Shown here: positions 3,865 through 7,270 of the stretch, one piece after another
Layout: each line of letters begins with the position of its first letter
Numbering within the stretch: position 1 is the stretch's first letter
NCBI RefSeq assembly: GCF_003334335.1
Contig: NZ_QOWQ01000032.1
Source: Escherichia coli
GTDB taxonomy: Bacteria > Pseudomonadota > Gammaproteobacteria > Enterobacterales > Enterobacteriaceae
Reading direction: 5' to 3' (one strand)
DNA: 54,189 bases
Notes under the pieces: generated by a model
What the model was told of the DNA's origin: nothing
Databases searched by the model: none
The model's input: only the letters and a program-made list of their open reading frames with translations
Made by a program: the position numbers and the translations under genes

Positions 3865-4926
3865 TTACAGCGCAATACGAATCACATCGTCTGGCTGGGT
3901 AGCTTCCTGCTGTTTAGTGGATTTTTGTTTCACACTGACATACAGCGTTTTGCCATCGGCAGACAGCGCCAGGCTGTTTGGATGAGTCGGCGTATCGAAC
4001 GTTTTCACCACTTTATAGCTTTTCGCGTCAATCACACTGACTTTACCTGCCTGACGATGCGTTACGTAGGCTTCATTACGCGCGGGGTTAAACAGCACAG
4101 CCAGTGATTCCGGTGCCGCAACCTTCGCCAGAATATTGCCATTACGGGTATCGACCACTAACACTTCTGCGGCTTTAGAATCGGTGATAAATGCACGCTG
4201 CCTGGCGGTATCAAGGCTAATGTTGATAAAGAAGTGCTCTTTGCCGTCATCCAGCAGCTTTTTACGGCTGAGGATTTTATTGTCGGCGGTGTCGATGGTA
4301 ATCAATTCGCCGTCAGCGTTAGTGGTGTAAAGACGTTTGCCTTCGCTATCCAGCGCCAGACCGGTACTCATTTTACCGGTGTTCTGGATGGCGGTTTTCA
4401 GTTTGATATTCCCGCCATCAACGACCCAAATCACGCTCTCTTTACCAATACCACTGATGTAAACGGTGTTCGTGGCATCGTCAGCTACCAGCTCACGCGG
4501 TTGCAGCGGGCGCACCTCTTCCGTGCGCTTACGATCATCCAGCACCAGACGGCCTTTCACTTCGCCCGTTTTGGCATCTATCGCCGTGACCGCGCTGTTT
4601 ACGGTGTTACCAAACCACAACGTCTGAGTCGTGTTATTGATGGTGGCACCAAACGGCTTGAGATCGTTATGGATCGCCTGCGTCACTTCCAGAGTGACCG
4701 GATCAAGACGATAAACCACGCCACCTTTATCCAGTTTGCGGCTTTGCGAAGTGGCGAGCCACAGCGCGTTTTCTTGCTGGCTATAAGCCATTTCGTAGGC
4801 ACCTTTACCTACCGCTTTACGCAGCATTTCTTCTGCGGCCTGCGTACTGAATGATGAAACAACAAGCAATGAACCTAACAGTAATGAACCACGCAGGCGC
4901 GATGAAAACAGATGACGTAAATGCAT
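3865..4926 (-). CDS. yncE: periplasmic beta-propeller protein (PQQ-like repeats), Fur-regulated
   Basis: 353-aa ORF with N-terminal signal peptide (MHLRHLFSSRLRGSLLLGSLLVVSSFSTQA). Length and sequence match K-12 YncE. Confidence 0.9.
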   Translation of the reverse strand: MHLRHLFSSRLRGSLLLGSLLVVSSFSTQAAEEMLRKAVGKGAYEMAYSQQENALWLATSQSRKLDKGGVVYRLDPVTLEVTQAIHNDLKPFGATINNTTQTLWFGNTVNSAVTAIDAKTGEVKGRLVLDDRKRTEEVRPLQPRELVADDATNTVYISGIGKESVIWVVDGGNIKLKTAIQNTGKMSTGLALDSEGKRLYTTNADGELITIDTADNKILSRKKLLDDGKEHFFINISLDTARQRAFITDSKAAEVLVVDTRNGNILAKVAAPESLAVLFNPARNEAYVTHRQAGKVSVIDAKSYKVVKTFDTPTHPNSLALSADGKTLYVSVKQKSTKQQEATQPDDVIRIAL

Positions 4927-5013
4927 GACGACTCCCTTTGATGAACCGATATTTTTGCTGCTTCACAATGCTTCGCTAAGCGTAATCATCGTTACGCTCT
5001 TGTTATAAATGGG

Positions 5014-5029
5014 AATGGTAATCATTATT
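5014..5029. promoter_or_regulatory. candidate Fur box in yncE-yncD divergent intergenic region
   Basis: aatggtaatcattatt matches the core of the Fur consensus (gataatgataatcattatc) at 14 of 16 positions. Sits between a Fur-regulated gene and a TonB-dependent receptor gene. Confidence 0.5.
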
Positions 5030-5167
5030 TTCTCAAATGTGGAGCATTTCTTGCCGTTACGACTACAATTTTCTCAATTACTTAACGTATTGTGCCGTTT
5101 CATTTTCCATAAATTTACAATTTCATTACCATGACGGCGTTTTCCCATTCTTAACCTGGCTTTTTTC

Positions 5168-7270
5168 ATGAAGATTTTTTCCGTCCGACAGACCGTTTTG
5201 CCCGCACTGCTTGTCCTTTCCCCCGTTGTTTTTGCCGCTGATGAACAGACTATGATTGTCAGTGCCGCACCGCAGGTGGTTTCAGAACTGGATACCCCAG
5301 CAGCAGTAAGCGTGGTGGATGGCGAGGAGATGCGCCTGGCAACACCGCGCATTAACTTGTCCGAATCACTGACCGGCGTGCCTGGTTTGCAGGTACAAAA
5401 CCGGCAGAACTATGCGCAAGATTTACAGCTGTCGATTCGCGGATTTGGCTCCCGCTCCACTTACGGTATTCGCGGTATTCGCCTGTATGTGGACGGTATT
5501 CCCGCCACCATGCCCGACGGGCAAGGGCAAACATCCAACATCGATTTAAGCAGTGTGCAAAATGTGGAAGTGCTGCGTGGCCCCTTCTCTGCCCTGTATG
5601 GCAACGCGTCTGGTGGGGTAATGAATGTCACCACCCAGACCGGACAACAGCCACCAACCATTGAAGCCAGTAGTTACTACGGCAGTTTTGGCAGCTGGCG
5701 CTATGGGCTGAAAGCAACGGGCGCAACGGGAGACGGCACACAGCCTGGCGATGTCGATTACACCGTCTCAACCACGCGTTTTACGACCCACGGCTATCGT
5801 GACCATAGTGGCGCACAGAAAAATTTAGCCAATGCCAAACTGGGCGTACGCATTGATGAAGCCAGCAAATTAAGTCTGATTTTCAATAGTGTGGATATCA
5901 AAGCAGATGACCCAGGTGGGCTAACCAAAGCAGAATGGAAGGCTAATCCACAACAAGCGCCTCGTGCAGAACAGTACGACACGCGAAAAACCATCAAGCA
6001 AACTCAGGCTGGGTTGCGCTATGAGCGTAGCCTGAGTTCGCGGGATGATATGAGTGTGATGATGTATGCCGGAGAGCGAGAAACGACCCAGTACCAGTCA
6101 ATACCCATGGCACCACAACTTAACCCGTCACATGCGGGCGGCGTGATTACCCTGCAACGCCATTACCAGGGAATAGACAGCCGCTGGACACACCGTGGTG
6201 AACTGGGCGTTCCGGTCACGTTCACTACCGGCCTGAACTACGAAAACATGAGTGAAAACCGCAAGGGCTACAATAACTTCCGCCTGAATAGCGGCATGCC
6301 GGAGTACGGGCAAAAAGGTGAGTTGCGTCGCGACGAACGCAATCTGATGTGGAACATCGATCCCTATTTACAGACGCAGTGGCAGCTGAGCGAAAAACTG
6401 TCGCTGGATGCTGGCGTGCGCTACAGCTCCGTGTGGTTTGATTCCAACGACCATTACGTTACTCCGGGTAACGGCGATGACAGCGGTGATGCCAGTTATC
6501 ATAAATGGCTACCTGCCGGTTCGTTAAAATATGCAATGACCGATGCCTGGAATATCTATCTGGCAGCCGGGCGAGGTTTTGAAACGCCGACGATTAATGA
6601 GCTGTCTTATCGTGCTGATGGGCAAAGCGGTATGAACTTAGGTTTAAAACCATCCACCAACGATACAATTGAGATCGGCAGTAAAACGCGTATTGGTGAT
6701 GGGCTGCTTAGTCTCGCATTGTTTCAGACCGACACTGATGATGAAATTGTTGTCGATAGCAGTAGCGGTGGGCGTACGACTTACAAAAATGCCGGAAAGA
6801 CCCGTCGTCAAGGCGCTGAACTGGCATGGGATCAACGTTTCGCAGGAGATTTTCGCGTAAACGCGTCCTGGACCTGGCTTGATGCGACCTATCGCAGCAA
6901 TGTTTGCAATGAACAGGATTGTAACGGTAATCGGATGCCAGGGATCGCCCGTAATATGGGCTTTGCGTCGATAGGTTATGTACCGGAAGATGGTTGGTAT
7001 GCAGGCACGGAAGCGCGTTATATGGGCGATATTATGGCAGATGATGAAAATACGGCAAAAGCGCCGTCTTATACTCTCGTCGGCTTATTCACCGGGTATA
7101 AATACAATTACCACAATTTAACTGTGGATTTATTTGGTCGTGTCGATAATTTATTCGATAAAGAATACGTTGGTTCTGTCATTGTCAATGAGTCAAACGG
7201 GCGATATTACGAACCTTCGCCCGGACGAAATTATGGTGTCGGCATGAATATTGCGTGGAGATTTGAGTAA
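5168..7270 (+). CDS. yncD: TonB-dependent outer-membrane receptor
   Basis: 700-aa ORF with signal peptide, plug domain and C-terminal beta-barrel ending in ...NIAWRFE (terminal aromatic residue). Length matches K-12 YncD. Confidence 0.9.
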   Translation: MKIFSVRQTVLPALLVLSPVVFAADEQTMIVSAAPQVVSELDTPAAVSVVDGEEMRLATPRINLSESLTGVPGLQVQNRQNYAQDLQLSIRGFGSRSTYGIRGIRLYVDGIPATMPDGQGQTSNIDLSSVQNVEVLRGPFSALYGNASGGVMNVTTQTGQQPPTIEASSYYGSFGSWRYGLKATGATGDGTQPGDVDYTVSTTRFTTHGYRDHSGAQKNLANAKLGVRIDEASKLSLIFNSVDIKADDPGGLTKAEWKANPQQAPRAEQYDTRKTIKQTQAGLRYERSLSSRDDMSVMMYAGERETTQYQSIPMAPQLNPSHAGGVITLQRHYQGIDSRWTHRGELGVPVTFTTGLNYENMSENRKGYNNFRLNSGMPEYGQKGELRRDERNLMWNIDPYLQTQWQLSEKLSLDAGVRYSSVWFDSNDHYVTPGNGDDSGDASYHKWLPAGSLKYAMTDAWNIYLAAGRGFETPTINELSYRADGQSGMNLGLKPSTNDTIEIGSKTRIGDGLLSLALFQTDTDDEIVVDSSSGGRTTYKNAGKTRRQGAELAWDQRFAGDFRVNASWTWLDATYRSNVCNEQDCNGNRMPGIARNMGFASIGYVPEDGWYAGTEARYMGDIMADDENTAKAPSYTLVGLFTGYKYNYHNLTVDLFGRVDNLFDKEYVGSVIVNESNGRYYEPSPGRNYGVGMNIAWRFE

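Follow-up and report, generated by a model that had tools for sequence, protein, structure and literature searches.

The window analysed here is a 54,189-nucleotide stretch of Escherichia coli DNA in which two genes diverge from a 241-bp spacer of 37% GC. On the minus strand, yncE (3865-4926) encodes a Sec-exported, seven-bladed beta-propeller protein of 353 amino acids, and is the gene repressed through the Fur box described below. On the plus strand, pqqU (formerly yncD; 5168-7270), annotated under this name in RefSeq, encodes a 700-residue TonB-dependent outer-membrane importer of pyrroloquinoline quinone (PQQ). A first-pass annotation had described the pair as divergent yncE and yncD, and its coordinates and gene calls were correct on re-check. 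The window is 100% identical to E. coli K-12, and both locus and Fur site are those documented for yncE (b1452). The spacer sequence is identical in the K-12 strains W3110 and MG1655, and the divergent order is retained in 65 of the 75 loci with enough flanking sequence.

A 14/16 match to the core of the Fur consensus had been noted between both genes, and our comparison confirmed it: AATGGTAATCATTATT at 5014-5029 against AATGATAATCATTATC. It is the only match of this quality in the 54-kb window, for which shuffled sequences give an expectation of 0.02. The full box is the 19-mer GGGAATGGTAATCATTATT (5011-5029, not assigned to a strand), which agrees at 15 of 19 positions with the 19-bp consensus GATAATGATAATCATTATC, composed of three GATAAT-like hexamers; its own hexamers read GGGAAT, GGTAAT, C, ATTATT. 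When the 54 kb were scanned with the 19-bp consensus, this element alone had four mismatches or fewer, and no match was found anywhere in the window at three or fewer. Among 5,000 dinucleotide-preserving shuffles of the spacer, 0.34% reached 15/19 and 0.04% reached 14/16; since shuffles so rarely equal either score, the match goes beyond chance. The box also matches the ChIP-exo-derived motif TGAnAATnATTcTCA at 10 of 13 positions (by eye, 11 of 13 in most other genera), and its conserved TAATCATTA core occupies 5019-5027. The 7-1-7 palindrome model cannot by itself pick out the box, because it yields 11 matches in the window at three mismatches or fewer, of which this is merely one. A Fur-like 15-mer at 44491 lies inside the hrpA coding sequence and was dismissed as a chance match.

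Conservation singles out the same bases. Across about 64 distinct Enterobacteriaceae spacers, no other 19-mer is as well conserved as the box, which has a mean identity of 0.88-0.89 against 0.60 for the whole spacer. Of 80 loci spanning more than 15 genera, most have the box about 80-87 nt upstream of the ATG of yncE; the exception is the Pseudescherichia-like loci, where this distance is ~39-43 nt. In nine Citrobacter species the box and the entire yncE-proximal module are retained without pqqU upstream, curA standing there in place of pqqU and mcbR. In E. albertii, intact pqqU has been lost, and yncE, the box and the rest of the module are retained beside a pqqU remnant. Comparative genomics shows this Fur site to be that of yncE rather than one of the pair as a whole.

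To locate Fur binding, published ChIP-exo peaks were mapped onto window coordinates. Peak P54 of W3110 (1524928-1524940, condition R) falls at 5007-5019 and shares 9 bp with the box, in agreement with occupation by Fur in iron-replete cells. A Fur peak has been reported within the same spacer in strain 042, and the MG1655 peak at 1521238-1521250 is probably the same site, provided that the rows of the table are shifted by one. A second MG1655 peak, at about 5277-5313 inside pqqU, was not treated as a Fur site because no Fur match better than 7/19 occurs in it. Expression of yncE depends strongly on Fur: in eight of nine strains, deletion of fur raised it with a log2 fold change of 3.1-8.1, that is, 9- to 280-fold (3.10, 8.14, 5.30, 5.51, 5.22, 4.20, 3.65 and 5.07). 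A fur mutant overproduces the YncE protein (PMC5120174), yncE is a member of both Fur iModulons, and published work reports Fur bound upstream of yncE and yncE RNA raised by RyhB. The element at 5011-5029 is a genuine Fur operator.

The response of pqqU differs between strains. Upon fur deletion its log2 fold change was 0.12 in MG1655 and -0.10 in strain W, but 2.95 (p 2.7e-51) in W3110 and 2.02 in 042, a 4- to 8-fold increase. PqqU (as YncD) has been reported as unresponsive to Fur (PMC7193533), and in all two groups state that it is not Fur regulated; public RNA-seq contradicts the flat claim that pqqU never responds. The increases in W3110 and 042 mean that placing pqqU outside Fur control is not absolute. 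Derepression upon fur deletion is borne out for yncE and inconsistent for pqqU.

PqqU scores 1311.7 bits against the NCBIfam equivalog TonB_rec_PqqU (NF041535; cut-off 1200) over residues 30-700. The window protein is identical to characterised PqqU, with full-length matches to PDB 6V81 and 9C4O, the latter ('Pyrroloquinoline quinone transporter') covering residues 24-700. Its N-terminus, MKIFSVRQTVLPALLVLSPVVFA / ADEQTMIVSA, includes a TonB-box-like QTMIVSA that can be read directly from the sequence. The full-length equivalog match, signal peptide, TonB box and plug-plus-barrel architecture together place the protein as the TonB-dependent receptor PqqU; it lies barely above the cut-off of the generic TonB-siderophore subfamily (224.9 versus 223.5 bits). 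PqqU is a high-affinity TonB-dependent importer that binds and imports PQQ (10.1101/2022.06.07.495086, PMC12124388), so the first-pass remark that the substrate of YncD is not evident is out of date. Uptake assays in a yncD deletion had been suggested as a check for an iron role, and the literature speaks against one: in a strain lacking every iron transporter, deletion of pqqU made no difference, whether iron was limiting or ferric citrate was supplied, and PqqU does not support growth on iron sources (PMC7193533). Fur-reporter activity was likewise reported as unaffected by PQQ.

YncE scores 561 bits against the equivalog 7_blade_YncE (NF052280; cut-off 400) and is identical to PDB 3VGZ; 3VGZ, 3VH0 and 7SEU match residues 1-353 (E 8.5e-229). 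A yncE deletion strain behaved as its parent in published PQQ plate and growth assays, and PQQ-dependent growth was unaffected. Because of this, and because yncE occurs without pqqU, YncE is not needed for uptake through PqqU. The locus consequently lacks both hallmarks of an iron-chelate uptake system: the substrate of the receptor is PQQ and not an iron-containing compound, and YncE is not a periplasmic partner that the receptor needs. Of the proposed iron-regulated uptake pair, the iron and Fur regulation of yncE stands, as seen in ChIP-exo, fur deletion and protein data; the other half falls, pqqU being a PQQ importer without an iron role. Our result corrects this functional guess: the receptor takes in PQQ, not iron.

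On the yncE side of the spacer, a candidate core promoter can be placed on the minus strand at 5015-5043, with a -35 hexamer TCCACA (5043-5038), a 17-nt spacer and a -10 hexamer TACCAT (5020-5015), for which other genera have TACTAT or TATTAT. The two hexamers are part of conserved blocks whose distance from each other is mostly constant, and at 8/12 to consensus they are weak and fall below the threshold of our scan. In this candidate, the best conserved one, the spacer and the -10 lie under the Fur box. A sigma-70 and terminator scan of the whole intergenic spacer returned one promoter-like and one terminator-like match; what looked like a terminator is the hairpin of the yncE leader, taken from the wrong strand, and was discarded, and no firm promoter emerged. 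RegulonDB lists a MarA site at -41.5 of yncEp. A marbox at 5040-5059 would fit a yncE start near 5008 with MarA at this position. A second, conserved marbox-like block, ACGGCACAATACGTTAAGT (5079-5098, minus strand), has one mismatch to AYNGCACNNWNNRYYAAAYN and would, if it is the MarA site, place the start near 5047; the Fur box, then at about +18 to +36, would be a roadblock downstream of this start. As 1.2 matches to the marbox consensus are expected per window by chance, the match at 5080-5098 is not above chance and we weighted this block by its conservation only. We found no mapped marbox at yncE in the literature searched.

The 5′ leader of yncE contains a conserved stem-loop, GCGTAA-CGATGA-TTACGC (4979-4998, minus strand). 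Every one of its six pairs shows compensatory changes; pairing holds in 93.5% of cells, compared with at most 55% for a slid partner, and the covariation score of 0.73 (0.33 in shuffles) was equalled by 0 of 500. An Rfam search of 4800-5300 gave no match. The small RNA RyhB is a validated activator of yncE and switches on a yncE-lacZ fusion (PMC4666370), and CopraRNA gives yncE a poor rank. Our search with the RyhB core picked the conserved GAAGCAUUGUGAAGC segment of the leader, and the conserved segment GAAGCATTGTGAAGCAGC (4957-4975, minus strand), complementary to this core, may be the pairing site. The duplex between the leader and RyhB nt 32-66 has an energy of -23.1 kcal/mol, which is equalled by 2.2% of shuffles; it carries little weight because 12% of window tiles equal it as well. 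Using full-length RNAs yielded only a meaningless long duplex, which was rejected.

On the pqqU side, a candidate proximal promoter lies on the plus strand at 5104-5132 (-35 TTTCCA, 5104-5109; 17-nt spacer; -10 TACCAT, 5127-5132). It matches the consensus at 8/12, and its blocks TTTTC and TTA(A/C)CAT keep mostly fixed spacing across genera. Judging from these positions, the centre of the Fur box would lie ~120 nt upstream of the candidate proximal pqqU start. A CpxR-like direct repeat, GTAAT-N6-GTAAA at 5114-5131, was set aside, its spacing being one off the CpxR consensus. In one paper, both yncD and yncE appear as genes that respond to CpxR.

Taken as a whole, we consider it very probable that 5011-5029 is the yncE Fur operator lying over the promoter of this gene, that RyhB adds activation, and that pqqU is separate and largely non-Fur. 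When iron is sufficient, Fe2+-Fur would occupy 5011-5029; because the box appears to overlie the core promoter of yncE (in TCCACA-N17-TACCAT, probably the spacer and the -10), RNA polymerase would be excluded and yncE kept low. Iron limitation or a fur mutation would release this block, with the 9- to 280-fold derepression as its outcome, and the iron-starvation RNA RyhB would exert further positive control via the structured leader. The pqqU gene would form a unit apart, largely outside Fur control, with conserved blocks of its own near its promoter, ~100 nt off; the PQQ that its product imports serves the periplasmic dehydrogenases Gcd and YliI. Of this picture, the match, its conservation, Fur binding in vivo and control of yncE by Fur are demonstrated; occlusion, the precise hexamers and the place where RyhB pairs are inferred.

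Could the box instead be a shared operator that co-represses both genes, as part of an iron or siderophore system made of an outer-membrane receptor and a periplasmic partner? The widely retained divergent order, the narrow pass of PqqU in the TonB-siderophore subfamily, earlier papers predicting yncE as part of an iron transporter (including PMC4666370) and the rise of pqqU in the fur deletion strains of W3110 and 042 all lean this way. They are met by a receptor that binds and imports PQQ and shows no iron phenotype on deletion, a Fur reporter indifferent to PQQ, a yncE deletion that equals its parent in PQQ assays, a pqqU that stays flat in the MG1655 and W deletions, and the presence of yncE with its box beside a pqqU remnant in E. 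albertii or with no pqqU at all in the nine Citrobacter species. We regard this reading as highly improbable, and its iron transport part is already refuted. That the match is a functionless product of an AT-rich spacer has next to no likelihood. The 37% GC of the spacer and the looser Fur-like matches elsewhere in the window, including the one in hrpA, would be in its favour, but spacer shuffles reach the observed scores in just 0.04-0.3% of cases, conservation across genera is well above the rest of the spacer, a ChIP-exo peak sits on the box and yncE is strongly Fur dependent; conservation and in vivo binding already refute it.

A conditional two-sided control, in which the box represses yncE and also weakly throttles pqqU, visibly so only under tight Fur repression, is in our estimate unlikely. 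Deletion of fur in W3110 lifts pqqU from 4-5 to 32-33 FPKM, and wild-type MG1655 is already at about 30; in parallel, wild-type yncE is only partly repressed in MG1655 (about 300) compared with W3110 (18). Because the spacers of both strains are identical, this difference is physiological and not due to local sequence. Throttling could operate through a candidate distal pqqU promoter in the yncE leader (plus strand, 4962-4989; TTCACA-N16-AATCAT), with a start near 4996 and the box at about +15 to +33. Alternatively, pqqU could be coupled to the divergent yncE promoter, which is very strong. The distal site is the sole promoter-like match of our spacer scan (9/12), it has a conserved -35 hexamer (TTCACA, CTGACA or TCGACA), and a review lists yncD/yncE among head-to-head pairs that co-purify with RyhB and whose UTRs possibly overlap. 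Yet one such match is what chance predicts for the region (1.1), the distal -10 belongs to the loop of the covarying hairpin and lacks its key A in Enterobacter-type sequences, and constraints on the yncE-leader RNA account equally well for the conservation there. Moreover, in strain W pqqU is unaffected although yncE is well repressed (94, rising to about 3960), and the two groups mentioned above report pqqU as not Fur regulated.

In the enterobactin cluster, Fur sites lie over both divergent promoters of fepA-fes and of fepB-entC, and both sides are iron-repressed. The yncE-pqqU locus resembles these in having a Fur box in a short divergent spacer and a TonB-dependent receptor as one of its genes. 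It differs in that the box adjoins the yncE side only, ~138 nt from the pqqU ATG, and in that pqqU is not reliably Fur responsive. PqqU also resembles BtuB, the vitamin B12 importer: both are TonB-dependent scavengers of a scarce organic cofactor and not of iron, and both are reported as not Fur or iron regulated. Unlike btuB, which is under a cobalamin riboswitch, pqqU has no known cognate control, only the conserved blocks on its side of the spacer.

Fur regulation of yncE is already known and has been characterised since 2003; McHugh 2003 and Seo 2014 are said to document it in E. coli. It is also documented in Gao 2023 (PMC10164565) and in Beauchene 2015 (PMC4676285), and biologically the present locus does not differ from what is documented. 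According to an AI-prepared supplement note (10.1101/2025.05.13.653802), RegulonDB reportedly has no curated Fur site at this 19-mer. With locus and site already documented and the 19-mer reportedly uncurated, only a base-level annotation gap remains; our analysis supplies the base-level placement of the yncE Fur site, apparently absent from that curation.

A further proposal, which we hold to be quite doubtful, is that the box also holds down pqqU in iron-replete cells and that YncE aids gluconate output by PQQ and Gcd, for example as a gluconolactonase. Hantke and Friz suggested YncE as the missing gluconolactonase. If this were true, iron starvation would raise both PQQ uptake and YncE, linking iron limitation to acid-driven mineral solubilisation. 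Independently of this proposal, YncE, a vaccine antigen, ranks among the E. coli proteins that Fur represses most strongly and that are most conserved.

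Across its 3406 bp, the region matches E. coli K-12 MG1655 at 100% identity, and 5414 of the 5426 complete E. coli genomes contain it; the 241-bp spacer alone is present at ≥95% identity in 5412. RefSeq annotates yncE on the minus strand (3865-4926) and pqqU, formerly yncD, on the plus strand (5168-7270), with ansP on one flank and mcbR, curA and mnaT on the other. YncE scored 561 bits against the NCBIfam "7-bladed beta-propeller protein YncE" and matched solved structures 3VGZ, 3VH0 and 7SEU over its full length. The receptor scored 1311.7 bits against the equivalog "TonB-dependent receptor PqqU" (cut-off 1200), with full-length matches to 6V81 and 9C4O ("Pyrroloquinoline quinone transporter"). 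The first-pass annotation had read both genes as an iron-regulated uptake pair, the substrate of YncD not being evident. That substrate is now known: YncD is a TonB/ExbB-dependent PQQ receptor, a pqqU mutant needing about 1000 nM PQQ where the parent responds at about 1-3 nM (Hantke and Friz, 10.1101/2022.06.07.495086), and a PQQ-bound cryo-EM structure and high-affinity binding were reported later (PMC12124388). In the former work, a yncE mutant behaved like the parent and PQQ left a Fur reporter unaltered. Furthermore, in a strain devoid of iron transporters, deletion of yncD had no effect, whether iron was limiting or ferric citrate was supplied (Grinter and Lithgow, PMC7193533). The uptake pair is hence unsupported, and the receptor beside yncE is the PQQ importer PqqU, not an iron transporter.

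The Fur box in the spacer, on the other hand, is real, functional and already known, and is the operator of yncE. As first proposed, AATGGTAATCATTATT at 5014-5029 matches the Fur core at 14 of 16 positions; no second site of this kind occurs in the window, where chance would give 0.02. The sequence at 5011-5029 matches the classical 19-mer at 15 of 19 positions and is the only site in the 54 kb with at most four mismatches. To allow for the AT-richness of the spacer (37% GC), shuffles of the spacer alone were added as a chance control: 15/19 was reached by 0.34% of them and 14/16 by 0.04%.

Binding at 5014-5029 is borne out by a published iron-replete Fur ChIP-exo peak of W3110 (1524928-1524940), assigned to the yncD/yncE spacer in the supplement of a nine-strain Fur pan-regulon (PMC10164565). 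Using the W3110 record (pqqU 1522677-1524779, yncE 1525021-1526082), this peak converts to window 5007-5019, overlapping the yncE-side half of the Fur box. Strain 042 has a Fur peak within the same spacer (PMC10164565), and the MG1655 peak 1521238-1521250 would be the same site if the genes in that table are displaced by a single row. In the text version of supplement file 3, the gene column of the MG1655 peak table does appear one row off relative to the coordinates: an adhP-upstream coordinate stands on the yddA row, and the yncE row as printed bears a coordinate inside pqqU. Re-users of this table should consult the original file.

Deletion of fur raised yncE in eight of the nine strains (log2 3.10, 8.14, 5.30, 5.51, 5.22, 4.20, 3.65 and 5.07; PMC10164565). 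Fur binding upstream of yncE (PMC4676285) and overproduction of YncE protein in a fur mutant (PMC5120174) have been reported, and both Fur iModulons include yncE. The Reg-Seq supplement (10.1101/2025.05.13.653802), an AI-tool-prepared text and weak as evidence, cites McHugh 2003 for iron repression of yncE of up to 18-fold and describes its Fur box as lacking RegulonDB annotation.

A YncE scan with one genome per species yielded 80 Enterobacteriaceae loci, 75 with enough upstream flank; 65 of these carry a full-length divergent pqqU, with 235-269 bp between the two genes. In nine Citrobacter species pqqU is absent upstream of yncE (loci L009, L010, L013, L014, L018, L020, L021, L025 and L080); in L013 curA lies directly upstream of yncE, pqqU and mcbR being missing. 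E. albertii (L005) has only a C-terminal pqqU remnant (PqqU residues 523-700, 71% identity). The Fur box is kept in all ten. In the pqqU-less Citrobacter, homology to the E. coli spacer is restricted to the yncE-side half, which retains CTCCAC, the Fur box, the leader hairpin, GAAGC..TGTGAAGC and the Shine-Dalgarno. This natural deletion shows that the Fur box travels with yncE, not with the gene pair. In an alignment of 64 distinct spacers, no other 19-nt stretch is as well conserved as the Fur box, whose mean identity to the window is 0.88-0.89, against 0.60 over the spacer as a whole. Most genera share the box sequence GAGAATAGTAATCATTA(T/A)T. The box precedes the yncE ATG by about 80-87 nt in most genera and by about 39-43 nt in the Pseudescherichia-like loci.

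Along the strand of yncE, six variable bases separate the conserved blocks TGCTCCAC(A/T)TT and, after it, AATAATGATTAC(C/T)ATTC(C/T)CAT. These blocks hold a candidate minus-strand promoter with -35 TCCACA (5043-5038), a 17-nt spacer and -10 TACCAT (5020-5015). Most genera have TACTAT as the -10, Salmonella and Atlantibacter TATTAT. The hexamers of this candidate match the consensus at only 8 of 12 positions, and a promoter scan of the spacer did not call it. Judged from these blocks, yncE is predicted to start near 5008, and the Fur box, covering the spacer and -10, would act by classical occlusion. Alternatively, with a start near 5047, it would be a downstream roadblock; yncE is the target under either start.

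Downstream of the box, the yncE leader contains a minus-strand stem-loop, GCGTAA-CGATGA-TTACGC (4979-4998; columns 18-35 of alignment A1), which implies a start site upstream of 4998. Across 31 Enterobacteriaceae sequences all six pairs show compensatory changes around a conserved C-N-ATGA loop, 93.5% of cells are paired versus at most 55% for slid controls, and the covariation score (0.73 versus 0.33 in shuffles) was reached by 0 of 500 shuffles. No Rfam family matched it, and we found no description of it. Adjoining it, the conserved segment GAAGCATTGTGAAGCAGC (4957-4975, minus strand) is complementary to the RyhB core GCUCACAUUGCUUC; the duplex (-23.1 kcal/mol) is weakly unusual and yncE ranks 834 in CopraRNA. 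Though statistically weak, this fits the report of yncE as a validated RyhB-activated gene (PMC4666370).

Fur control holds for yncE and is inconsistent for pqqU. Expression of pqqU was unchanged by fur deletion in MG1655 (log2 0.12) and W (-0.10; neither significant), but rose in W3110 (2.95, p 2.7e-51) and 042 (2.02; all PMC10164565). Conserved blocks suggest a separate plus-strand pqqU promoter, TTT(T/C)CA-N17-TA(A/C)CAT (5104-5132); measured from its start, the centre of the Fur box would lie about 120 nt upstream, a distance too great for occlusion, in agreement with the absent effect in MG1655 and W. PMC7193533, citing McHugh 2003 and Seo 2014, likewise lists yncD as neither Fur nor iron regulated. 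We consider it unlikely that the box also has a weak effect on pqqU, visible only under tight repression; such an effect could act through the promoter-like plus-strand TTCACA-N16-AATCAT (4962-4989) or through coupling to the yncE promoter. Besides the W3110 and 042 increases, it would account for two K-12 strains with the same spacer sequence differing: wild-type W3110 has yncE at 18 FPKM and pqqU at 4-5, while wild-type MG1655 already has yncE at about 300 and pqqU at about 30, the latter being the pqqU level of both strains upon fur deletion. In a review, yncD/yncE is also listed as a head-to-head pair whose UTRs may overlap. Yet in strain W yncE climbs from 94 to about 3960 while pqqU stays flat.

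The pqqU-proximal half of the spacer (5078-5135; also L024, L026, L034, L046, L053 and others) conserves TTAACG..TGTGC, marbox-like on the minus strand, TTTTC, TTTACAA and TTA(A/C)CAT, at spacings mostly fixed among themselves and variable relative to the yncE side. A minus-strand direct repeat there, GTAAT-N6-GTAAA, looks CpxR-like with spacing one off. In many genera (L026, L034, L046, L053, L067 and others) the inverted repeat AACATGT-N4-ACATGTT, followed by TTCCATTTGGTTCG, lies between the pqqU -10 candidate and ATG, with ACATGT changed to ATATGT on both arms in Klebsiella. It is missing from Escherichia and Salmonella (absent at window 5133-5150) and could be an operator or RNA hairpin lost by E. 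coli. Pig isolate EC6 (L085) carries an IS5-family element between the candidate pqqU promoter and ATG, after window ~5153, and in strain TO73 (L084) IS1 cuts off the last pqqU codons; since PqqU serves as the receptor of phage IsaakIselin, selection may favour disruptions of this kind.

On the other flank, a palindromic Fur-like 19-mer, AATAATGGTGATAACTATC (2163-2181), which scores 14/19 on either strand, precedes the ansP ATG by about 72 nt. In published RNA-seq, ansP (2253-3752) falls in fur deletions of MG1655 (log2 -1.39) and W (-2.23), not of W3110. The 112-bp gap between the convergent ansP and yncE contains a GC-rich hairpin (3758-3786) with only a short T-run, so transcription reading through from derepressed yncE could instead explain the fall.
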